Source: Escherichia phage vB_EcoM_EP57. From it: DNA of 64,000 nucleotides. The translations under genes were made by a program, and so were the position numbers. The stretch lies in the sequence record OR544956; one strand, given 5' to 3'. Under the pieces are notes generated by a model, which did not search any database, was not told the DNA's origin, and saw only the letters and a list, made by a program, of their open reading frames with translations. Of the stretch, positions 8,264 through 60,969 are shown piece after piece (position 1 is the stretch's first letter; each line of letters opens with the position of its first letter).

Positions 8264-8548
8264 CTATTTTTTCTTTTTCTTTGCTTCCAACCGTCTAAGG
8301 TTACGGCTTGACTTATTGCGCAAGGCGCTTAGATCGTCGTACCCTTTCCATGCTTGCATATCTTTCGGATTCATGTTATCCCCCTTATATTTGTTAGCCG
8401 GATTATATACCAGGACCGCGCCGCTTGCTTTCACGCTTTCCGCTTCATAGTTGCGCAGATCGTTTTCTGTAAGATTGAGCGCGATCACTTCCTCGACTTC
8501 AACGCCAGCGGCAAGGGCGATCTCTTTGATAATGTCTGTTATTTTCAT
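8264..8548 (-). CDS. hypothetical protein (94 aa)
   Basis: ORF trimmed to ATG with AAGGTG RBS. Confidence 0.55.
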   Translation of the reverse strand: MKITDIIKEIALAAGVEVEEVIALNLTENDLRNYEAESVKASGAVLVYNPANKYKGDNMNPKDMQAWKGYDDLSALRNKSSRNLRRLEAKKKKK

Positions 8549-15850: not shown

Positions 15851-16188
15851 AAGTTTAAATAATTTGAGGAATTTTTGAGATACTCTCTACGGTGCTGTAG
15901 GAGCCTTATTTCTGTGCTACAAAGTGACACCTTTGTTCTAAAAATGAAAAAAGTTAAAATATCACAAATATCGTCTTTGCGGTATTTTGTCTGGGAAAAG
16001 TATTTCGATCAGTTTATTATGATATTTGCCTAAAAGATTCTGCCCTTTCCAGGTGGCAGGGTTTAGCACCCCTGGTTCATACATCCCCATTCCAATTCCG
16101 TAAACCTTATCGTAGGGGCTTGCTTCAACAAACGTTTTGTATTGGTAAAGGTGTAAGTCTGCATACAAATCTGGATTCTGTACATATT

Positions 16189-16305
16189 TCAAGGATTGAC
16201 TTCCAAACGTTCTTCATCCTCTTTATAACAATCCAACACTGCTTTAAGTTCATCATAGTGGTTCAGAATAGGTTTAAAGATTTCATGATCTGCTAAACGT
16301 GCCAT
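16189..16305 (-). CDS. small hypothetical protein (38 aa)
   Basis: hand-found ORF with AAGGAGAAACT RBS. Confidence 0.3.
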   Translation of the reverse strand: MARLADHEIFKPILNHYDELKAVLDCYKEDEERLEVNP

Positions 16306-16318
16306 AGTTTCTCCTTTG

Positions 16319-17824
16319 TTAATCCATCCACCAGTAGCCATAAACCGCGTCTGCGTCGATGAGTTTGTGTTTGTTGTTCCGCATGTAGTCTAAGATAAGT
16401 AGACGTTTATTGTATCTGGAGAGATTATGACCCTCTTTTCCGCCATAGTCAAAATATTTTGCAAGATCTTTACACTCAAACAAAATCAATTCGGGAGTTT
16501 CTTCATACTGGTCTGTCTGGTACACTTGACGAATGATCATGTATACATCATCGTCTTCCGCTAAATGCTCTACTGGTCCACATCCAGCAGGAACAAATTC
16601 ATAGTCCCATCGAATCAGATGTTTCTCTACTGCTTCAAAGAAGTCCATTCTTTCGTTGCGCATAATTTGAACGTCAACTAACATGTTTCCTCCTCTACCC
16701 AGGGTAGTGGAACGTTGTGTTACAGGTTCCAGCACCACTCGCAGAGTGTTTCCTGGTGTAGTGCTCATAACCAGAATCTTACCACCTTCAATCAGATCAC
16801 AAGTTAGACCATCAGCCGTTGCACATAGATCAATATGTGGATCACCATCTTCATCCAGGATAACATAACTGTTGGTTTCCATTGCTTCCACTTCATCATC
16901 TTTCAAACTTTGTAGATAGATGTTCAGGGAACAAGCACCCGACAAAAACTTAGTAGGGGTGAAGTCGTGCCAGTTATTGATCCAATTCACCTTCAAGGTT
17001 TTGCCATTAGCTACGATAGAAGCCACATTCCATTTAGCATCGTTCCCTAAAGAAATACCCATCATTTCAAGACATTCTTTAAAAGTCATTTTTGGATAGA
17101 AATTCAATTCTTCTACAATGCCTTGAATAACATCGAAAGACAACTCTGTGCTAACATCCCATAAACGTTGGAAGTTATCTACGTGCTTTTTATTTACCAA
17201 GTTCTTATCCAAGTAATCTAACATAGTTTCACTAGACAGTTTATCGTAATTGAAACTGTAGTAGATACGACTAGGACGGTTTACAAAATATTCCGAGATA
17301 TAACCACTATTTTTAGTGAGGATGTAAAGTTTATTCCCACTTCCTGTTCCATCCAACAAGGTCAACAGTGCTTCCTGATCTTCTTTCTTAGCGTACACTT
17401 TATCAAATTCGTCAAATAAAACAACAGCACGATCTGTAATTTTACTCATAAATTCTAAGAAGCCAGCATCTGTGTAAGGCTGTGTAACCAAAATGGTTGG
17501 AATACCTAAACCTTCTGTGGACATTAGGGACATGCTAATTAGTTTAGCTAACATCGTCTTACCACTGCCTTTTGTGCCTGTCAGTAACACCCCAGTATTT
17601 TTACCTTCTTTACTACGACGAGCAAATGTTTTAATAACATGTGCGGCGCGGTCTTTAGTTTCCCCATAAAGAGTGTTCGGAAGAGAGAAACTTTCGCCAC
17701 GCACTAAAGAGTAGTTACCGTGTGGATCGCAGTTGACAACCCAAACTCCAGCAGGAAGTTTATTAGCTTCAACACCATATTCCTTATTTACAACAGCCAC
17801 ATCTCCAAAAATAGTGTATTTCAT
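16319..17824 (-). CDS. AAA-type ATPase, unknown role (501 aa)
   Basis: Walker A GTKGSGKT, Walker B VVLFDEFD. Confidence 0.65.
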   Translation of the reverse strand: MKYTIFGDVAVVNKEYGVEANKLPAGVWVVNCDPHGNYSLVRGESFSLPNTLYGETKDRAAHVIKTFARRSKEGKNTGVLLTGTKGSGKTMLAKLISMSLMSTEGLGIPTILVTQPYTDAGFLEFMSKITDRAVVLFDEFDKVYAKKEDQEALLTLLDGTGSGNKLYILTKNSGYISEYFVNRPSRIYYSFNYDKLSSETMLDYLDKNLVNKKHVDNFQRLWDVSTELSFDVIQGIVEELNFYPKMTFKECLEMMGISLGNDAKWNVASIVANGKTLKVNWINNWHDFTPTKFLSGACSLNIYLQSLKDDEVEAMETNSYVILDEDGDPHIDLCATADGLTCDLIEGGKILVMSTTPGNTLRVVLEPVTQRSTTLGRGGNMLVDVQIMRNERMDFFEAVEKHLIRWDYEFVPAGCGPVEHLAEDDDVYMIIRQVYQTDQYEETPELILFECKDLAKYFDYGGKEGHNLSRYNKRLLILDYMRNNKHKLIDADAVYGYWWMD

Positions 17825-18180
17825 TAGAACGTTTCTCCTTTTAAAATAATTACTGTAAACTTTGCAGTTTTTTCACTCTTAATATTCTTGACTAATAAGT
17901 ATTCTCCTCCAGGGGCATCTTTATACTGTTTAATAGCTACTATTTCATTTTTGCAAGTGGCTATAATCGAATAAAAAGGACGTTCCGTGTTATCTTCTTT
18001 TCCTGTATATGCCTCAACATCTTGGCACTCTTCCAGAACACCATTTCCAGGTGTATAGTAAAATTTGTTGCCTGTGATTACAACATCTTTACCAATATCT
18101 GTTTTAACTGCTACAAATTTTTGAGCGTAAGTGGTGAAGCTTACGGTAGCCAGCAATGTGGCTAAGATTAATTTTTTCAT
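17824..18180 (-). CDS. secreted hypothetical protein (118 aa)
   Basis: signal peptide MKKLILATLLATVSFTTYA; overlaps ATPase start. Confidence 0.55.
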   Translation of the reverse strand: MKKLILATLLATVSFTTYAQKFVAVKTDIGKDVVITGNKFYYTPGNGVLEECQDVEAYTGKEDNTERPFYSIIATCKNEIVAIKQYKDAPGGEYLLVKNIKSEKTAKFTVIILKGETF

Positions 18181-19542: not shown

Positions 19543-19826
19543 CGTGCCTTCTCCCGATCTGCATCTAATTTCAACAAGAAAGCTGTATACTCTTCCGAAC
19601 CTTGGTGTAAAAACATGCGATAAGAGCTTACCAGTTTCTTGGTCGTTGTATAACGTTCCATTTCCCCAACAACACCTCCACCTAGTGTGTAGAGCACAAT
19701 ACCTTCAACTCCAACATGGGTTACTACTTCAACCAAGTCTGTGTTATCCCAATGATAGTTAGGTGACACAATAAGATCGCCAACTGCCAGTTTAATGTTT
19801 GCTACTTCATTTTGTGAATAATACAT
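19539..19826 (-). CDS. hypothetical protein (95 aa)
   Basis: ORF trimmed to ATG with GAGAGGAGG RBS. Confidence 0.5.
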   Translation of the reverse strand: MYYSQNEVANIKLAVGDLIVSPNYHWDNTDLVEVVTHVGVEGIVLYTLGGGVVGEMERYTTTKKLVSSYRMFLHQGSEEYTAFLLKLDADREKAR

Positions 19827-19863
19827 TTGGTCCTCCTCTCTTAATTGATGGAAGTAGTATACC

Positions 19864-20355
19864 TTACCACATAATCTCGCGCAACTCTTTTTCTTCTTTA
19901 AAATTACGTAAGTTTTCCAGTGCACGATTTAGGTCTTCTTCCGTCTCTGCTTTCTGGACTTTTTCCATCATTTTCGCAACAATATTTTTCTTAACTTGCA
20001 AATCTGGAACAGGCATACGTTTTTCCATTTCATAAGCTTCTCGTTTATGACGTTCCTCCATCTCTGCTTTTTCTTTCACCCAATCCGCCTCGTCCATTGC
20101 ACCTTTGCAGACACAAGTGTAACCTTTAATAGTATAATCACCATGTTCAATACCAGGTTGAAGAGCTAAGGCTTCATTACCACAATACGCGCACAACGGA
20201 CGACCTGGCATTTTCAAAGTTTTGGTAGCCTTAGCGCCACATTGACTATCCCAGCTTGTTTTATAACTGGAACCGTTGTCTCCGTGAGAACGACCAACCA
20301 AGAAGTTACGGAAGAAACCCATAGCACGTTCGTCAATGTAATCAGGGTAAGCCAT
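19864..20355 (-). CDS. Cys-rich hypothetical protein (163 aa)
   Basis: CAYCG..C.C zinc-ribbon-like spacing. Confidence 0.6.
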   Translation of the reverse strand: MAYPDYIDERAMGFFRNFLVGRSHGDNGSSYKTSWDSQCGAKATKTLKMPGRPLCAYCGNEALALQPGIEHGDYTIKGYTCVCKGAMDEADWVKEKAEMEERHKREAYEMEKRMPVPDLQVKKNIVAKMMEKVQKAETEEDLNRALENLRNFKEEKELREIMW

Positions 20356-20367
20356 TATATTCTCCTT

Positions 20368-20661
20368 TCACATTAAGACACGTTTTGTGTCGATGGGTGC
20401 ATTATCAAACATGTTAAGAACATTGTCAAGCAGTTTTACTAATTCATTTGTAATTTGTTCTTTTGAACGGGAGGAAGTGAGCACTTTGCTTTCACCAACG
20501 ATATGCATAACTTTTATAGGAGCGTCTAAAATGATGTTGTGTTGACGATCCTCTTCAAAAGAAGCCAACCATTTCTCATTGTTACCGTGCAAGGCTACAA
20601 TCACACCAAAACCGTTAATTGTTTCAGAAATATTCTTAGTTGCTAAAGTAATGTTCATCAT
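20368..20661 (-). CDS. hypothetical protein (97 aa)
   Basis: ORF, first gene of leftward block. Confidence 0.55.
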   Translation of the reverse strand: MMNITLATKNISETINGFGVIVALHGNNEKWLASFEEDRQHNIILDAPIKVMHIVGESKVLTSSRSKEQITNELVKLLDNVLNMFDNAPIDTKRVLM

Positions 20662-20717
20662 CTACCTCTCTTGTTAATGTTCATACATGATACCTGAAAA
20701 TAATTTCAGATCAAGTG

Positions 20718-20745
20718 TTGACATGCTTTTTAGTCCTGTTAAGAT
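20718..20745 (+). promoter_or_regulatory. sigma70-type promoter for rightward block
   Basis: TTGACA-N16-TAAGAT then AAGAGGAG RBS. Confidence 0.55.
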
Positions 20746-20775
20746 CAACTCATACAAAACAAGAGGAGAAAACAA

Positions 20776-21204
20776 ATGCAAAACATGACTTGGACCGAAG
20801 CTAAAGAAGCGATGCAGAATGGCAAACGTGTGAAGCACGAATACTTCTGTAGTGATGAGTGGTTTGAGATGCAATACGGTGTTATTCTGGATGAGCATGG
20901 CTACAATATGTCAAACTGGTTCCGAGGGGAAGCTTGGCAAGAACAGGGTTGGTTTGTAATTGAAAAAGAAGACAGTAAGGAAGAAGGCGTGTTGTCTAAT
21001 GTAGAACGCGAGATGAGGGAAACAAAGATACCTGCTTTGGATTTTGTATACCTGGAAGAACTTGTGGCAGCATCTTTTGTAGCAGGAAACCTTTGGAATA
21101 CACCTGTTAGCCGACTGGAGAACCAAAATAACCCGTCTGCTCGTAATCACAAGCTTTATAAGGGTAAAGGTCACAACAAATTAAAGAAAGGAAAGAAGAA
21201 ATGA
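20776..21204 (+). CDS. hypothetical protein (142 aa)
   Basis: ORF. Confidence 0.6.
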   Translation: MQNMTWTEAKEAMQNGKRVKHEYFCSDEWFEMQYGVILDEHGYNMSNWFRGEAWQEQGWFVIEKEDSKEEGVLSNVEREMRETKIPALDFVYLEELVAASFVAGNLWNTPVSRLENQNNPSARNHKLYKGKGHNKLKKGKKK

Positions 21205-26946: not shown

Positions 26947-28196
26947 ATGAAAGATTTGTACCAAGATGTTTTTTCTTTTTTAGATCGCACTTCAGAAACA
27001 TACACTAGAGAGAATGCAAACAAACCTTCCCACCTCGTTAACACACACAGGGATCTCTTGGCGGGGATTTTAAGCAAACATATGGCAATGACACAGATAC
27101 TGCCAAAAAACTTGTCAGAATGGCATACAGAAGGTTTTGGACATATTCACGACTTGGATTATCTGCTCTCTCCTCTTACAAACTGTTGTCTTGTTAATTA
27201 CCAAGATATGTTAGAAAATGGTTTTAAGATCGGTGCTGCACAGATAGAAAAACCAAAATCTATTGGAGTAGCTACCACAGTGCTAACTCAAATCATCCAA
27301 GCTGTAGCATCCAGTCAGTATGTCTGTTCCTTTGAACAAAGAAGTTACGGGATCAGCAGATGGTACTGTTACGAGTATGGGTTGTCGTTCCTTTTTGTCG
27401 TACTATGCCACCGAACAAGGAGAAAAATATGATGGACGATTCAACCTTGAGACATACCAAAGCATCTGAAAACCCTATTCTTTTCATGGAAGGGGCTTTA
27501 GCGCGTTTAAATGCCAATGATGAAATTGGTGTTTTGTTTGAAGATGGTTATGCTTCTATTAGTATTGGTTATGTAGGTCTTGCCGAAGCTTTGGAAATCC
27601 TTTATCCAGAAGAAAAAGATAAAAAGGAACTTGGTAAAAGCATTCTGCAACATATGAAAGATGTGTGTGCTGTGTTTAAAGAACGATCTAAGCTGGCGTT
27701 TAGTCTCTATGGAACTCCAGCAGAATCCTTGTGCTATAAGTTTGCAACAGCTTTAAATAAAAAATACCCAGGTTTGGTAGAAAGAGACTATCTTACTAAC
27801 TCTTTTCATCAACCTGTGTGGTTGGTAACAAATCCTTTTGAAAAATGGGATTATGAAGCAGGTTTTGCACAGATTAGTAATGGTGGTAACATAAGTTATG
27901 TCGAAACACCAAACTTAAAGAATAACTTAGAAGCTTTGGAGACTTTAGTAGACTACGCTTATGAACATATTCACTATTTTGGTATTAATCAGCCCGTGGA
28001 TCAATGCTTTAAGTGTGGTTTTCATGGGGAATTTAAGGCAACGGCTAAAGGGTTTGAGTGTCCTGATTGTGGCAACCATGAAGAAGAAACTATTTCTGTA
28101 GTTAGACGTGTATCAGGGTATCTTTCTGCCCCTAATTCACGGCCTTATAACAAAGGTAAAATGCAGGAAGTTTTGCAAAGGGAGAAACATCTTTGA
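26947..28196 (+). pseudogene. nrdD: anaerobic ribonucleotide reductase nrdD, disrupted
   Basis: RDLLAGI, HIHDLDY, MGCRSFL, glycine-radical RVSGY, C-terminal Zn ribbon; read across three frames and lacks central part. Confidence 0.75.
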
Positions 28197-31767: not shown

Positions 31768-32686
31768 ATGCAACTTGGTTTCCCAATTATTGATGTAGTT
31801 GTTTTAGTTGGTATTTTAGCATTGTCTATTGGTATTGATTTCTTTGGTCACAAAGAAAATAAAGAAATTTCATTCAAATCCGCAGTTGGTTGGTCGATCT
31901 TTTGGATTGGTGTATCATTAGCTTATTATGGTTTTGTATACTTCCAACATGGTGCCGATTTTGCTAACTTGTTTTTAAGTGGATATGTGTTGGAAAAATC
32001 TTTGTCGGTAGATAACTTGGTAGTATTTGTAGCAGTATTCGCAAGTTTTGGTATTAAAAGCACACACTTGCAGCACAATAGGCACTTACTTGTTAAGTTT
32101 GGGCTGGTATGTTAATATCTTCTTCGGTGCGGTCATCCTTTTCTGTGCAGCTAAAATGGTATTTGCTGGAGATAATGACGCAGAAGTTGATTACTCTAAA
32201 CACTGGGCTACCCGTATTGTTCGTAAACTGTTCCCTGTATCTAATAAAATGGATGGGGAGAAGTTCTTCACAATCGAAAATGGTGTTCGTGTAGCAACTC
32301 CAGCTTTGGTTTGCGTATTCGTGATGGAAATGGTGGATGTAATCTTTGCAGTAGATTCGGTTCCAGCGGTGATCGCAGTGACACAAGAACCCCTGCTTGT
32401 ATTCTCTTCGATGTTATGTGCAATCTTAGGTCTACGTGCTCTGTTCTTTGTTCTTAGTGTCGCACTGAAGTATCTGGTTCACTTGGAGAAAGCAGTTATT
32501 GTGGTTCTGGTGTTTGTAGGCGTTAAACTGATGTATCACCCGTTTGCAGAAACATTGCATGAGAAAATGAGTTTCCTGCCAGCACATATTGATCCAACTA
32601 TTAGTATGTATATCGTGCTTGGTACTTTGGCCCTTGGTGTTATTGCAAGCTTTATCTTCCCTGAAAAAGAAGAAGCTACTGTTTAA
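31768..32686 (+). CDS. terC: TerC-family membrane protein, frameshifted
   Basis: LSVDNLVVF and QH motifs; ORFs 31768..32115 and 32048..32686. Confidence 0.65.
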
Positions 32687-55491: not shown

Positions 55492-57704
55492 TTAGGTTGT
55501 TGGCACATCTACTACTGGCGTTGGGCGAATAACCGCAGTATTACCTACAGAAACATTACTGGAATCATTAGGTATGGTTTTAATTCTAACTCCAGCACTT
55601 GTAGGCGTTACAATTGGATCTGCAATGTCTATTTTAACTGGGTTAGTCCACGTATCATTATCTTGATAAGGTGCACGAGTAATAACTGTGTCCAAATCTG
55701 CTCCACCTACGCCAGCACCAGGAATACGGATACGTGTCCCTGCTGACAGAGGGTAATGATACAACCAAGAAGCATTTGTTGCTGTCCCGTTAGGAGTCAA
55801 GTTCTGTGTCAGGAAGGTATCTCCTGCCTGTGTAGCTCGAATACCGAAAGCTGGGATATCTGGAATATATGCCCCACTTGTTGTTACAAGGAAGAACGTA
55901 TTATCCGCCTTGACTATCATATCACCTTTGTCAAACTCTTTCCCTGTTGGGAAATGCATTCCATCAATGTTTCGACTAGGATTAGGCTCTAAGTAATAAA
56001 CTTTGCCCGTTGTCCCTACAATAGCTCCAATACCACCTGCGATATTGGTATACATATTAGCTTCAACATTACAGTTGACACGATGAATATCCGAGTAACG
56101 GCAACGGCTCCACTGTGGACGACCAGTAACCATCGTCTTGCCATCTGGGTAACAGTTTACGTTAACCATTTCAAGAACAGATTTTTCTCTACGGAAGAAT
56201 CCATCATAAAATGTTCCTGGACCAGATTCAGGTTGACCAACACAATCGAAGATATTACAGGTGATGTTAGACATTGAAAGCCAAGAAGCTATACCGAACA
56301 ACTGCAATGCAGCGCAACGAATATTTTCAAAGCTAACTCTGTTTTCATAACCTGGCCCAGCGGAAACTCCCGCAAAAACACGCCCAGTTTTGGTGTGAAT
56401 GTTACGAACAGAATAGTTAAAGCATGGGTTTGAAGGTCTACCCTGTGCCGGAACTACCGGATTACCCTCTTCGTCCAGAACTGCGTTAGTTCCCCACTCC
56501 AAATAAATCATACGGATATTACTTGCAAGTGTGCTACCGTCTGTTTTAGGCTCCCCATAAACACCGTCAATCGTAAAATCTTTACTTCCATACATTACAA
56601 CTGCGCCAGTTGCCAAACCTGTCCCAACAGATACGGTTTGATCTGGATCGCCATGAATGTTTTCGATAGAAATATTACGACCAACTTCTACGTGGACAAT
56701 CTGACGGCAACGTTTTGCAAAAACGTTACGAATTGTAATATTCTTGCAATATTGATCATCAGGGATTCCGTAACCATATGGTCCTTTACCAGCTACACCG
56801 ATACCGATACCCCAGTTGGACAGAGGAATAGGAGCGTTAGTCCCATCGATATTAGACAGGTAAATATTCTCAATCACACAACCATCATCATAATGTTTAT
56901 TGATGACGTTCAGTTCTATCGCATCACCTTGCATGTCCATGAAGGTAAGGTTACGGAAGACACCACGTGTTACTGGTTCCCCTGTCCCTTGTTGAAGCCA
57001 TATAACCCGTTTTTAAAAGTACAGTTATCAATTTCAAAAGTACCTGATATTGGGTTGCCTTGGAATACCAAGCTACCAACTTGACCTGCGCGAGGAGCAC
57101 CGTCCCACAAACAATCGAACATGCGCACAGCACCACCCCAATACATAACACGAGAGTTACGGAAAGTTGTGCCTTCTACTGTAGCATTTTGCACACGATA
57201 GTCGCGTTGACCACGGAACACACCCCCACGCAAAGTGATATCTTGAATATCAAAAGAGCTTGTCGTGAAAGTCATATCGCAACCGTAAGCATCGAGAATC
57301 TTGCTTTTCGAAGCTTTTGCTGCTAACAGTGCCGCCTGGAAAGCTGCTTCTGGTGTGGTATAGGTAGTTGTATTGTTAGCAAATTCTGACAAGTAGACAA
57401 CATCGAATAAATCGTTGTATGTTCCACCACGAGGGGTTAACAGTCCTTCCGTATTAGTTAGAACCCATGCGTTTGGACCTAATCCACCGCTTGTCTCTAA
57501 TGTGTCAGAGGCCAAAATACTTTTTGGTAAACTTCCAGCCCAACGATAACGACCAGCACCACGTCCAATCGTCTGATTTTTAGCTGTCAGGGTTACGTTA
57601 TTACCAAAGCTTGTAGGCAAATGGACAAATTGTCCACGTTCAACAGCCAGTGCAGAAAGATCTACAGATCCCCCAGAATAAGTCATTACTCCAGAAACAG
57701 ACAA
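55492..57704 (-). CDS. tailspike-like beta-helix protein, frameshifted
   Basis: ORFs 56970..57704 and 55492..56940, contiguous in different frames. Confidence 0.45.
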
Positions 57705-57709
57705 AGATG

Positions 57710-58261
57710 TTAAAGTTCCTGTAATGTTAGGAGGTAGTGTGTAGGAAGACTGTGACTATCTTCTATGCGGAAAGCTTCCCCCAGAACCTGAATAACACCA
57801 TTGATCGTAACAATAGCACTATCAAAGATGTAAGGAGGACTAATTACTGTTTCATAACCAGTTGCACCAGAATATACCCAAGGGGTGACTTCTGTTGCCA
57901 ATTGTTCTGTCTTCAGTCCCCACAATACCCAGTTGTTATCTCCTACTGGAGTCCCTTGCATAGGGATAGGGTTAACCAATGTAGCGTTAGGAGCATAGTA
58001 ATAACCGCTCAATACTCCATTCTGGAAATAACGAAGTTGGTTAAAAACTGTTTCGTTTGTGCCTTGCGCCCAATCCAATGGGCTTTTAAAGAAAAAGTTG
58101 TCAACAAGGGCTTTTCTCAGGGTTGGTATCAACCCTGATTCTGTTTCAATACTCTCTGTAGCACTTCCATTAATAACATCATGGAGTTGGTTAGATGAGA
58201 AAATAACCAGGTCTACGCCCTGTTCGAGAGACGTTGCTGGATATGTTGGGAATGTTGCCAT
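57710..58261 (-). CDS. tail/baseplate-associated protein (183 aa)
   Basis: ORF in structural operon. Confidence 0.5.
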   Translation of the reverse strand: MATFPTYPATSLEQGVDLVIFSSNQLHDVINGSATESIETESGLIPTLRKALVDNFFFKSPLDWAQGTNETVFNQLRYFQNGVLSGYYYAPNATLVNPIPMQGTPVGDNNWVLWGLKTEQLATEVTPWVYSGATGYETVISPPYIFDSAIVTINGVIQVLGEAFRIEDSHSLPTHYLLTLQEL

Positions 58262-59591: not shown

Positions 59592-60969
59592 TTACACTCC
59601 ATACTCGTAAGAAATGTTATCAAGGTCAAAAGAAGGGACAACATTATAAGCAGGAACTATATTATTCTCTGTATATTTACTGTCATCCTCAGTATTAAGT
59701 TTAACATAAACACGAAGAGAAGTCAAGCGTCCAAAAGCAAGTGCTGCATAAATAACCCCTTTGATTTGATCGTTCGTTACTGAAGAACCTAATTCAAAGT
59801 AAGCTTGCAGGTTTTGTAAAGCTTCTACGATGTTTTGTTTTTCTGTTCCACTTAAAGTTGTTCCGTTGACAGTTTGATAAACAAGTTTTACAGAATACAT
59901 AGCAGAAGCACCTTTCTTCAGCACTCCCTCCATAAACTATAGTCTGGAAAGTCATAGCTGGAGCATGTTCTTGATCATGTAACGTAGGGTTATCATAAAT
60001 CTTCACCTTAGTAACACCATCTGTAAGTAACAGAGCTTTCACAATAGCTGCTCGTGTCCCTGCGTTAGCTTCGTCAACGTTGTCATTGAAACGAGAGCGG
60101 AATTCTGCGTCTGTCTCAACATCTCGACCAGGGGAAAATGAATAGAAGTTACCACTATCAAGATAACCTGTAAAGGTAGAAGATATCCCTGTAATAGACT
60201 CCACACCAACAGGATTGTATCCTTTCTCTGCTGCAACTACCGGAATCTCACTCCACTTGGTTCCAACCGGAACACTAGCATAAAATTTAATAGGAGTTAC
60301 CAGTCCCACTGGAGTATCACTGGTTAAAGAAGTAAAACCAATTGATAAGTTACCTGAATCAGAAAATACAAGACTACGATCAGCTTCTGTTAAATTTGCC
60401 TTGATAAAAGTTTCAAGATCGGTTATAAATGTAGAAGAACCAGGTGCAAGTGTTTTACTGTTTAGTCCTCCATCGACCGCACTTTGTGCATAAAAAGTAA
60501 TATTTGGAACACCTGTAGCAGTTGCATTAGCACGAGAGATTTGATAAGCTGCAATCTTAGCATTCAACATGGTTGGTGTGCTAACATAATAGTTCATATC
60601 ACTATCAGAGTTGAAGTAAATATCCGTGCCTAACTCATAAGTCCAAGCTGCTTTGTTATTACTCTTAACATATGCATAACCTGTACTTGCTGCTGCCCCT
60701 GCTCGATAGAAACCGCGTTTAGAAAAAATTTCGTCAAGATAAATACCTTCTGCGCCATCTAGTGTTTGAGTATTATAAACACCTTGCATACCTTCCCACA
60801 ATGTGTAATCTGTGTATGCAATTATTCTAAACAGTTGTCCGATCACAGTATCTTCAGAAGTGGCTGCATCTGCACCAAATGTGTTTTTTACTGCTGTCAT
60901 ATAATTGTTTAGAACATCGTCAAAAGTCGGGATTACAAATCCCGCATCTGTTAAACCATATTCGTCCAT
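59592..60969 (-). CDS. baseplate J-like protein, frameshifted
   Basis: ORFs 59794..60969 and 59592..59933; shift at an A-run. Confidence 0.45.

Follow-up and report, generated by a model that had tools for sequence, protein, structure and literature searches.

An apparent 501-residue AAA ATPase in the record of Escherichia phage vB_EcoM_EP57 joins the products of two separate phage genes

The 501-residue Walker-type protein predicted from the genome record of Escherichia phage vB_EcoM_EP57 (OR544956) is, as judged by sequence comparison, a chimera that joins an AAA ATPase, 379 residues long in relatives, to a 121-residue protein; the two are encoded by separate phage genes. Very probably, the chimera results from the absence of 1,061 bases, for which a drop-out in the EP57 assembly is the likeliest cause, and its ATPase part belongs to a large phage AAA family. 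In the window, the 64,000-nucleotide stretch of this record that was analysed, the open reading frame is present where the first-pass annotation placed it (Table 1), but its length of 501 residues is not a property of a real protein family. Both annotated nucleotide-binding motifs can be read in the frame, as Walker A (GTKGSGKT, G83-T90) and Walker B (VVLFDEFD, V134-D141). The exact 501-residue sequence occurs solely as WPK29215.1 of EP57.

Table 1. Positions of the 501-codon reading frame, its component parts and the upstream gene in the window.
Feature	Position	Strand	Remarks
501-aa ORF	16319..17824	(-)	Walker A and Walker B present
ATPase codons 1-376	16697..17824	(-)	In relatives the complete gene runs to 379 codons, with ...LGSVF-stop at its end
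Walker A	17555-17578	(-)	Within ATPase part
Walker B	17402-17425	(-)	Within ATPase part
Artificial linker, codons 377-380 (R-G-G-N)	16685..16696	(-)	Hybrid codon AG/A (slash, breakpoint), then AGGAGG Shine-Dalgarno sequence and spacer of the 121-aa gene
121-aa gene (tuntematon gp052, phrog_24465)	16319..16684	(-)	Appears in the EP57 record as the C-terminal part of the 501-aa ORF
118-aa signal-peptide protein gene, homologue of tuntematon gp055	17824..18180	(-)	Upstream of the ATPase

Residues 1-376 of the reading frame are 100% identical to the 379-residue ATPase gp054 of phage tuntematon (YP_009986430.1), and residues 381-501 match its 121-residue gp052 exactly (YP_009986428.1). Residues 377-380 (R-G-G-N) come from translation of the junction and of the Shine-Dalgarno sequence of the 121-residue gene: comparison of the window with tuntematon, ukendt and phiWec190 identifies this linker as AGGAGGAAAC upstream of the ATG, read as codons. 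The EP57 junction consists of CTGGGTAG joined to AGGAGGAAACATG, and chained BLAST alignments to three relatives put the breakpoint between positions 16695 and 16694. Relatives carry 1,061-1,243 extra bases at this point, with exactly 1,061 nt, at positions 19,719-20,779 of tuntematon, absent from the window. Because these 1,061 bases are absent, ATPase codon 376 is read in frame through the Shine-Dalgarno sequence into the 121-residue gene. That the fusion falls in frame is a one-in-three coincidence, which counts against a chimera formed by drop-out.

The contiguous junction was found in none of 70 related phage genomes. The ATPase and 121-residue halves lie in separate places in 68 of them, and in the remaining two, which are without the endonuclease gene described below, they are ~245 bp apart. 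In phiWec190, which was read in detail, two genes are separated by 45 nt comprising a stop codon, a hairpin, a Shine-Dalgarno sequence and an ATG. PHROGs likewise holds the two parts as separate families, with phrog_2376 covering residues 1-372 and phrog_24465 covering residues 381-501. In a search of 5.8 billion proteins, none of the best 120 of 475 homologues covered more than 75% of the 501-residue query. The best 150 of 3,746 phmmer hits, from an exhaustive search of 1.84 billion representatives, aligned to residues 1-375 or to residues 381-501, and never to both. A 21-mer spanning the junction was not found in IMG/VR or JGI metagenomes.

The window derives from a Phapecoctavirus and is 99.5% identical to phage tuntematon in this stretch. 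In seven of the 68 genomes, which were read in detail, a 379-residue ATPase gene and its stop codon are followed by a terminator-like hairpin, then by an endonuclease gene that stands free, and finally by the 121-residue gene as a gene of its own; the annotations of tuntematon, ukendt, P3322 and ESCO5 give the same succession of ATPase (379 aa), endonuclease and 121-residue protein. The hairpins 3′ of the ATPase stop have predicted energies of -17.5 and -17.7 kcal/mol (z -4.3 and -3.6). By comparison with tuntematon, the true EP57 locus would encode, in order, the 118-residue signal-peptide protein, the 379-residue ATPase, the hairpin, the endonuclease and the 121-residue protein. The ATPase would overlap the preceding gene by one base and end ...LGSVF-stop, and the 121-residue gene would have its own AGGAGG-N5-ATG. 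The 1,061 absent bases would take with them the final three codons of the ATPase gene and its stop codon, together with the hairpin and the complete endonuclease gene.

The reading frame in the spacer of the relatives encodes a putative homing endonuclease. It contains CapR zinc-finger repeats (E about 1e-22) and gives weak T5orf172 and MUG113 (GIY-YIG-like) matches of 0.006-0.015, below cut-offs. In T4-like phages, the seg and mob genes encode free-standing homing endonucleases and lie between conserved genes. Like these, the reading frame in the relatives occupies a spacer between two conserved genes, has its own Shine-Dalgarno sequence, overlaps the start of the next gene with its 3′ end and is missing from some genomes. 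Unlike them, this putative nuclease combines CapR repeats with weak T5orf172/MUG113 similarity and is absent from the window. Its alleles are of different lengths and share only about 77% identity, and phiWec188 and phiWec190 are without the cassette.

The 121-residue protein matches phrog_24465 with an E-value of 6.5e-84, and its gene stands alone with its own Shine-Dalgarno sequence and ATG in the relatives read. Only 8 clusters of this family were found. Its predicted model, built from a shallow alignment, has a pLDDT of 64.7, and Foldseek returned no fold match for it at E < 0.8. In two more distant phages (loci L016 and L017), an ATPase 48-49% identical to that of the window adjoins the 121-residue gene at a distance of 23-38 nt.

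The EP57 genome was assembled from Illumina short reads with SPAdes to a length of 130,723 bp (PMC11657129). The genomes of its relatives span 145-161 kb, most being about 150 kb, which leaves EP57 20 kb short. Relative to tuntematon, the window alone has 24 gaps that amount to 13.4 kb net. At least 11 of these gaps, located between 15.2 and 32.1 kb, are shared by none of three relatives tested, and most are without replacement bases; the eight gaps past 47 kb were compared with tuntematon only, save for the baseplate gap. A gap splits the baseplate wedge gene, with residues 1-352 in frame -2 and residues 387-495 in frame -3, and the 110 nt absent from it, at the junction of window positions 59,912 and 59,913, are present in 12 of the 12 best relatives. 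Gaps also split nrdD across three frames, divide the genes for TerC, a nucleotidyltransferase and gp141, and truncate the tail protein gp128. As several of the gaps throw baseplate, tail and nrdD genes out of frame, we infer that the 1,061-base loss is most likely one of many assembly drop-outs and not a biological deletion. Some gaps in tail-fibre genes could reflect natural variation.

Two specific routes to such a gap were considered and rejected. Collapse of a repeat does not apply, as the endonuclease cassette is single-copy in tuntematon, and deletion between direct repeats is not indicated by the overlaps at the gap junctions, which occur at about the chance level. A de Bruijn assembler does not normally create junctions that are without read support, and this counts against an artefact.

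Alternatively, EP57, or part of its population, may truly have lost the 1,061 bp and make a genuine fusion of the ATPase and the 121-residue protein, in which case the latter might also be produced from the retained internal Shine-Dalgarno sequence and ATG. The clean, in-frame junction is compatible with such a deletion, as is the coming and going of endonuclease cassettes within the genus, illustrated by phiWec188 and phiWec190. The adjacency of the two genes at L016 and L017 further suggests that a fusion could be tolerated if the proteins act together. Nonetheless, a real deletion is improbable. It would have to be set among many other gaps shared by no tested relative, including the frame-shifted baseplate wedge and the truncated tail protein, which are incompatible with a plaque-forming myovirus, and in a genome that falls short by 20 kb. 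The junction was moreover absent from every other genome, virome and metagenome searched, and the fusion costs the ATPase its aromatic C-terminal tail, a feature conserved throughout the family (SVF, LLY, KLF or MFDGK).

Assignment of the N-terminal part to the AAA-type ATPases is borne out by a match to Pfam AAA (PF00004) over residues 79-170 (E 1.2e-6; 29.4 bits against a gathering cut-off of 21.2). The protein is neither a clamp loader nor a terminase: it matches its own family, PHROG 2376, with an E-value of 1e-110, against 1e-3 to 1e-4 for clamp-loader and DnaC-like PHROGs. Across 33 homologues, Walker A residues G83, K85, G86, G88 and K89 and Walker B residues D138 and E139 are invariant. 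The same holds for the second region of homology, which comprises T170, N172 and the segment N-R183-P184-S-R186, and supplies sensor-1 (N172) and two arginines (R183 and R186). Distant members read NRPGRIY here, and the region aligns with the RPGR segment of p97 D2. The pore-loop aromatic residue Y117 is Tyr, Phe or Trp in nearly all of the 33 homologues. Pore loop 1 reads Y117-T-D in the window protein, placing Asp at the glycine position, and YVG, FVG or FFG in distant members.

The family profile matches Cdc48/p97 D2, VAT, NSF, Rix7, AFG2, Msp1 and PEX1 chains in the PDB with E-values of about 1e-9, and the ATPase is a stand-alone classic-clade AAA protein, one of a large phage family. Compared with the ATPase modules of Cdc48/p97 D2, NSF D2, Bcs1, YjoB, Msp1, FtsH and proteasomal Rpt, it shares the Walker A and B motifs, the sensor-1 Asn, an RPxR motif with two arginines and the pore-loop-1 aromatic residue. 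It differs from them in consisting of a single AAA module without a protease, transmembrane or second AAA domain, and in a pore loop 1 that reads Y-T-D in the window in place of aromatic-hydrophobic-Gly. By analogy with the classic clade, the protein probably forms a ring in which ATP, acting through K89, D138/E139, N172 and R183/R186, would power the threading of a protein substrate along a central pore that would be lined by Y117.

In a model of the monomer, the AAA module is flanked by a small beta domain at the N-terminus (residues 1-45) and a beta-rich one towards the C-terminus (about 265-367). The latter is family-specific and accounts for part of what the original description called a large unassigned C-terminal domain; the remainder is a different gene. 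No solved structure matched the N- or C-terminal beta domain; alignments cover the AAA module only. At E <= 1e-30 the family numbers over 1,100 clusters, defined at 50% identity, and it occurs at no fewer than 429 IMG/VR loci. The window holds no second ATPase paralogue. No functional study of the family was found in the literature.

The same protein appears in Phapecoctavirus annotations as a 'putative ATPase' (tuntematon gp054, ESCO5 gp153), a label carried over from phAPEC8. The window copy resembles tuntematon gp054 in its match to phrog_2376 (E 1e-110) and in the upstream 118-residue gene with a one-base overlap; it differs in lacking the three terminal codons, which encode SVF, and a stop codon after them, so that it runs into the next conserved gene.

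The idea that the ATPase works as a phage unfoldase, taking apart a host protein such as a defence complex much as Trip13 does, is a doubtful one. The phage protein is 16% identical to the bacterial Trip13/Pch2-like CBASS remodellers (PDB 6p8v), a resemblance that is structural only, and no HORMA partner or CBASS context is visible around the ATPase. PADLOC gave no significant match, its only hit being a weak one to mad8 (4e-5), and NCBIfam returned nothing near cut-offs for a defence or anti-defence assignment.

The 118-residue gene upstream of the ATPase begins at the ATG at 18180, preceded by a GGAGGG Shine-Dalgarno sequence, and its product starts with MKKLILATLLATVSFTTYA followed by QK. 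The protein has a signal peptide, as the earlier annotation proposed; it is conserved, of Sec type and read directly from the sequence as MKK, LILATLLATVSF and T-Y-A/Q, the slash marking the predicted cleavage point. Its n-region is basic, its hydrophobic h-region spans about 12 residues, and the residues at positions -3 and -1 are small. The protein matches phrog_5474 (E 1e-39) and is identical to the tuntematon and anhysbys proteins. The phiWec190 homologue is 39% identical, reads MKK...ASFVASA/A and retains both Cys residues of the mature part. Tuntematon gp076, which carries the same VOG label, was rejected as a paralogue, as BLASTP detected no similarity. The overlap with the ATPase, described initially as one codon, is a single nucleotide: in the sequence TAATG, the stop codon of the 118-residue gene shares base 17824 with the ATPase start.

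The first-pass annotation further proposed that the ATPase and its exported neighbour form a functional pair, and their suggested role in host takeover or superinfection exclusion is pure speculation. As to the putative early region in which it placed them, promoter-like sites are not enriched over shuffled sequences (20 found, 16.6 expected). A dedicated two-component system of this kind, with the 118-residue protein acting in the periplasm, is highly unlikely. The TAATG overlap is kept in the closest relatives, and the 118-residue protein diverges far more quickly than the ATPase (identities to phiWec190 of 39% and 80%, respectively), as would be expected of a protein facing a host or competitor. 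The coupling is nevertheless confined to those closest relatives and is lost in phiWec190 and at locus L012 (68 nt between the genes). The phiWec190 spacer contains a promoter-like TTGACA-N17-GATAAT motif. Members of the 118-residue family were detected in close Phapecoctavirus relatives alone, and it is not obvious where an AAA protein in the cytoplasm would meet a soluble protein that is exported.

A census of neighbouring genes at 82 loci revealed no constant partner of the ATPase, and the gene upstream of it changes from lineage to lineage. NADAR follows the ATPase at only 7 of the 82 loci, and a NAPRTase/NAMPT-family gene is nearby at 12. The ATPase often lies among accessory genes such as these, an observation that lends slight support to an unfoldase function.

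Phage genes split by endonucleases are exemplified by T4 topoisomerase genes 39/60 and Aeh1 nrdA, and the endonuclease sits exactly between the two halves in most relatives; even so, it is extremely improbable that the 501-residue gene is ancestral and was split in the relatives by a homing endonuclease, group I intron or intein, given that endonuclease-free relatives still have two genes (as in phiWec190), that the listed ATPase homologues, down to about 30% identity, are 283-497 residues long and match the ATPase part only, and that the linker in the window is a Shine-Dalgarno sequence read as codons. An intein was rejected on the length of the insert (1,061 nt, 2 mod 3), and a group I or II intron on the absence of an Rfam match at E <= 1 in loci L001 or L002.

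The reading of the 501-residue frame as a drop-out chimera carries a caution, in that its length and unplaceable C-terminal domain stem from missing sequence in a low-quality public record. The roughly two dozen gaps of this record generate other false fused or truncated reading frames, and any scan of the window should be compared with a relative whose genome is complete, for instance tuntematon (NC_052660). The ATPase itself is already catalogued and widespread in large phages (PHROG 2376), with no specific new mechanism indicated, and its family is a reasonable, though not urgent, target for functional work.

The 501-aa ORF, described in the first-pass annotation as an AAA-type ATPase with a large C-terminal domain, joins two genes into a chimera; in every related genome examined, these genes stand apart. 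The locus is 99.5% identical to that of Escherichia phage tuntematon and 92–99% identical to 69 other Phapecoctavirus records, and in every record among the matches listed the match is split into two parts ~1.06–1.28 kb apart. Residues 1–376 are 100% identical to the tuntematon ATPase gp054, and residues 381–501 are identical to a separate tuntematon protein, gp052, leaving the large C-terminal domain unsupported. Correspondingly, residues 1–372 match PHROGs family phrog_2376 ('ATPase', profile length 363) and residues 381–501 match phrog_24465 (121 positions). In tuntematon, ukendt, P3322 and ESCO5, the annotated order is 118-aa protein, 379-aa ATPase, 'endonuclease' (332 or 402 aa) and 121-aa protein.

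The tuntematon ATPase gene ends ...CTG GGT AGC GTA TTC TGA and is followed by the hairpin AAACCCGC-TTCG-GCGGGTTT and a T run (folding energy −17.5 kcal/mol, z −4.3). The endonuclease gene lies 3′ of this hairpin with its own ribosome-binding site, and its last codons overlap ...CAGGAGGAAACATGTTAG, the Shine–Dalgarno sequence and ATG of the 121-aa gene. The window junction reads ...CTG GGT AG|A GGA GGA AAC ATG TTA G..., and exactly 1,061 nt (tuntematon 19,719–20,779) are missing, so that ATPase codon 376 runs through a hybrid codon and the Shine–Dalgarno sequence (R-G-G-N) into the 121-aa gene. The fusion deletes the conserved aromatic tail of the ATPase family C-terminus (SVF, LLY, KLF, RIF, MFDGK).

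The endonuclease of the relatives carries CapR zinc-finger repeats and a weak C-terminal T5orf172/MUG113 (GIY-YIG-like) match. Its 332- and 402-aa alleles share ~77–81% DNA identity between flanks that are 97–99% identical, and it looks like an active, putative free-standing homing element. It is neither an intron, as Rfam matched nothing in L001 or L002, nor an intein, since 1,061 cannot be divided by 3. The endonuclease is absent from two records, phiWec188 and phiWec190. Without it, phiWec190 still has two genes: ...AGT GTG TTC TGA, the hairpin ATGCCCC-GCAA-GGGGCAT (−17.7 kcal/mol), then GGAGGAAAATT-ATG. The same hairpin precedes the endonuclease gene in ukendt. Taken together, these arrangements place the endonuclease in an intergenic spacer as a free-standing element.

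With a query spanning the junction, none of 70 phage records showed the two parts contiguous. Among 5.8 billion proteins searched, none of the 120 best of 475 homologues (283–443 aa long) covered >75% of the query. Searching 1.84 billion cluster representatives exhaustively with phmmer yielded 3,746 matches; each of the top 150 matched one of residues 1–375 and 381–501, and none matched both. The junction 21-mer was not found in IMG/VR or JGI metagenomes, and exact look-up of the 501-aa sequence returned only WPK29215.1 of Escherichia phage vB_EcoM_EP57 itself. On this evidence, the fusion is a derived state and unique to date.

The 1,061-nt gap does not stand alone. The EP57 genome (OR544956; 130,723 bp) was assembled with SPAdes from Illumina reads (PMC11657129); relatives in the searches measure 145–161 kb, most of them ~150 kb. 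Chaining the whole window against tuntematon revealed 24 gaps, a net deficit of 13.4 kb over 64 kb. The missing segments, of 27–2,225 nt each, are present in 99%-identical relatives, and at most gaps no window bases substitute for the missing stretch. At least 11 gaps between 15,268 and 32,078 are shared by none of the three relatives tested (tuntematon, P3322 and ESCO5). Two others, at 8387|8388 and 36379, also occur in relatives and look like ordinary polymorphism.

Locations of the ORFs, disrupted genes and junctions (window positions unless a related locus, L-number, is named)
Feature	Position	Strand	Remark
501-aa ORF	16319..17824	minus	Walker A, Walker B and Pfam AAA
118-aa ORF	ATG at 18180		directly upstream of 501-aa ORF; GGAGGG Shine–Dalgarno precedes ATG
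NADAR-domain protein	15962-16192	minus	C-terminal third only (Pfam profile positions 100-154)
nrdD	26947-28193	plus	three reading frames, via two gaps (433 and 128 nt)
TerC-like membrane protein gene	31768-32683	plus	two frames, shifted by 53-nt gap
gp130 frame change	56994-56997	minus	residues 516/517; DNA alignment gapless there
Baseplate wedge (baseplate J-like) gene	59595-60969	minus	residues 1-352 in frame -2, 387-495 in frame -3
'Endonuclease'	L001 4596-5594		between ATPase and 121-aa genes; window without element
'Endonuclease'	L002 4568-5776		between ATPase and 121-aa genes; window without element
420-aa protein	L005 3650-4912		MGSFNTTC...; without Pfam match
Junctions	15268, 15658, 15882|15883, 16193|16194, 16694|16695, 18650|18651		comparison with relatives
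Junctions	23409|23410, 26477|26478, 27322, 27449|27450, 32078		comparison with relatives
Junctions	50528, 52245, 54476|54477, 57758, 58585|58586		comparison with relatives
Junctions	59912|59913, 61148, 61549|61550		comparison with relatives

The gaps unshared by the tested relatives fall at arbitrary places within genes and are not preferentially multiples of 3 in length, and junction overlaps are at chance level. Besides nrdD and the TerC-like gene, the nucleotidyltransferase gene and gp141 each occupy two reading frames, and tail protein gp128 keeps only residues 1–534 of 890. The baseplate wedge gene is broken by 110 missing nt that are present in 12 of the 12 best-matching relatives. No plaque-forming myovirus could carry a frame-shifted baseplate gene together with truncated tail genes, so loss of segments from the record, through drop-outs or contig joining, is the simplest explanation, and the 1,061-nt gap is probably one such loss. 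A real deletion in EP57 at this particular site is improbable. Repeat collapse was ruled out as the cause, the endonuclease cassette being single-copy in tuntematon.

Several further irregularities were observed. The tail fibre-like gp130 ('colanic acid degradation' in tuntematon) is hit by a 277-nt gap at 57755; its additional frame change points to a small indel error or else a mutation. The NADAR remnant is explained by a 375-nt gap at its junction (16193|16194), and an intact NADAR gene (180 aa, PF08719, E 8e-36) is found after the ATPase block both in relatives and in one distant phage contig, L010. ARAGORN found no tRNA genes in the 64-kb window; the 11 stated for the EP57 genome (PMC11657129) must sit elsewhere in the genome or inside missing segments.

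The ATPase assignment itself is sound. Walker A (GTKGSGKT, residues 83–90) and Walker B (VVLFDEFD, residues 134–141) are present, and Pfam AAA (PF00004) matches residues 79–170 above the gathering threshold. Across an alignment of 33 homologues, with identity down to 30%, residues G83, K85, G86, G88 and K89 (Walker A), D138 and E139 (Walker B), T170 and N172 (sensor 1), and R183, P184 and R186 are invariant; at the sequence level, this is the full classic AAA catalytic set. Distant members read NRPGRIY around R183–R186, which carries the RPGR signature typical of the second region of homology in classic AAA proteins. The family profile matches Cdc48/p97 D2, VAT, NSF, Rix7, AFG2, Msp1 and PEX1 (E 1e-9 to 1e-5), and a conserved aromatic, Y117 in the window protein, aligns with the pore-loop-1 W-F-G of p97 D2 (YVG, FVG or FFG in distant members). 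The AlphaFold model (pLDDT 85.4) comprises a small N-terminal β domain (1–45), a linker helix, an AAA α/β domain with lid (77–255) and a β-rich C-terminal domain (265–367). By analogy, the ATPase would assemble into a ring and thread a protein substrate using Y117, driven by ATP hydrolysis at K89, D138/E139, N172 and R183/R186. Clamp-loader or terminase homology, named in the first-pass annotation as counting against its reading, was looked for; clamp-loader and DnaC-like PHROGs matches are weak (1e-3 to 1e-4) and restricted to the P-loop surroundings, so this objection does not apply.

The neighbouring 118-aa protein was correctly flagged as secreted: its N-terminus, MKKLILATLLATVSFTTYA|QK, reads as a Sec-type signal peptide. 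Its gene ends in TAATG, so it shares a single base (17824) with the ATPase gene, not the codon originally proposed. This overlap recurs in tuntematon, ukendt, P3322 and ESCO5. Both phiWec190 and the related locus L012 have 68 nt between the two genes, indicating that translational coupling is local rather than a conserved property of the pair, and the suggested functional pairing is unsupported. Overall, the first-pass observation stands in part, and its interpretation is supported in part. The phiWec190 spacer contains TTGACA-N17-GATAAT; its signal-peptide protein is 39% identical to the 118-aa protein, retaining the signal peptide and both cysteines, and its ATPase is 80% identical. No member of the 118-aa protein's family was found beyond close relatives. 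The ATPase gene sits ~3 kb from the start of a dense leftward gene cluster, which begins at a divergent region near 20.7 kb, and promoter-like motifs between 15.2 and 21.2 kb were not enriched over shuffles.

Only eight clusters of the 121-aa protein turned up in a large database; its gene directly follows the ATPase gene in two further loci (L016 and L017; ATPase 48–49% identical). The structure predicted for this protein is of low confidence (pLDDT 64.7) and gave no fold match. Across 82 loci, the genes flanking the ATPase vary by lineage and none accompanies it throughout: NADAR lies 0.25–1.6 kb after it in seven loci, and a NAPRTase/NAMPT-family gene and a GDSL-like hydrolase occur in 12 and 14, respectively. 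Neither PADLOC nor NCBIfam, searched as defence libraries, returned a significant match. The 420-aa protein, with homologues in L018, L021, L022, L025 and L084, adjoins the ATPase upstream in nine loci of jumbo (GAP32-like) phages and may be a lineage-specific partner.

The ATPase family is large and phage-borne: IMG/VR contains at least 429 of its loci, and 1,137 cluster representatives match at E <= 1e-30. It is represented in the jumbo phages GAP32, Serratia BF, Xanthomonas XbC2 and Yersinia fHe-Yen9-03, as well as in Aeromonas phage BUCT695. Some IMG/VR phages of ~149 kb carry two paralogues ~16 kb apart (contig pairs L013/L024, L015/L019 and L014/L023), ~64% and ~44% identical to the window protein; the window has one. 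The real ATPase is already in dozens of sequenced Phapecoctavirus genomes, annotated 'putative ATPase', so there is nothing new at this locus. The useful outcome is a warning: the record holds many artificial junctions, and any ORF across a listed junction is suspect.
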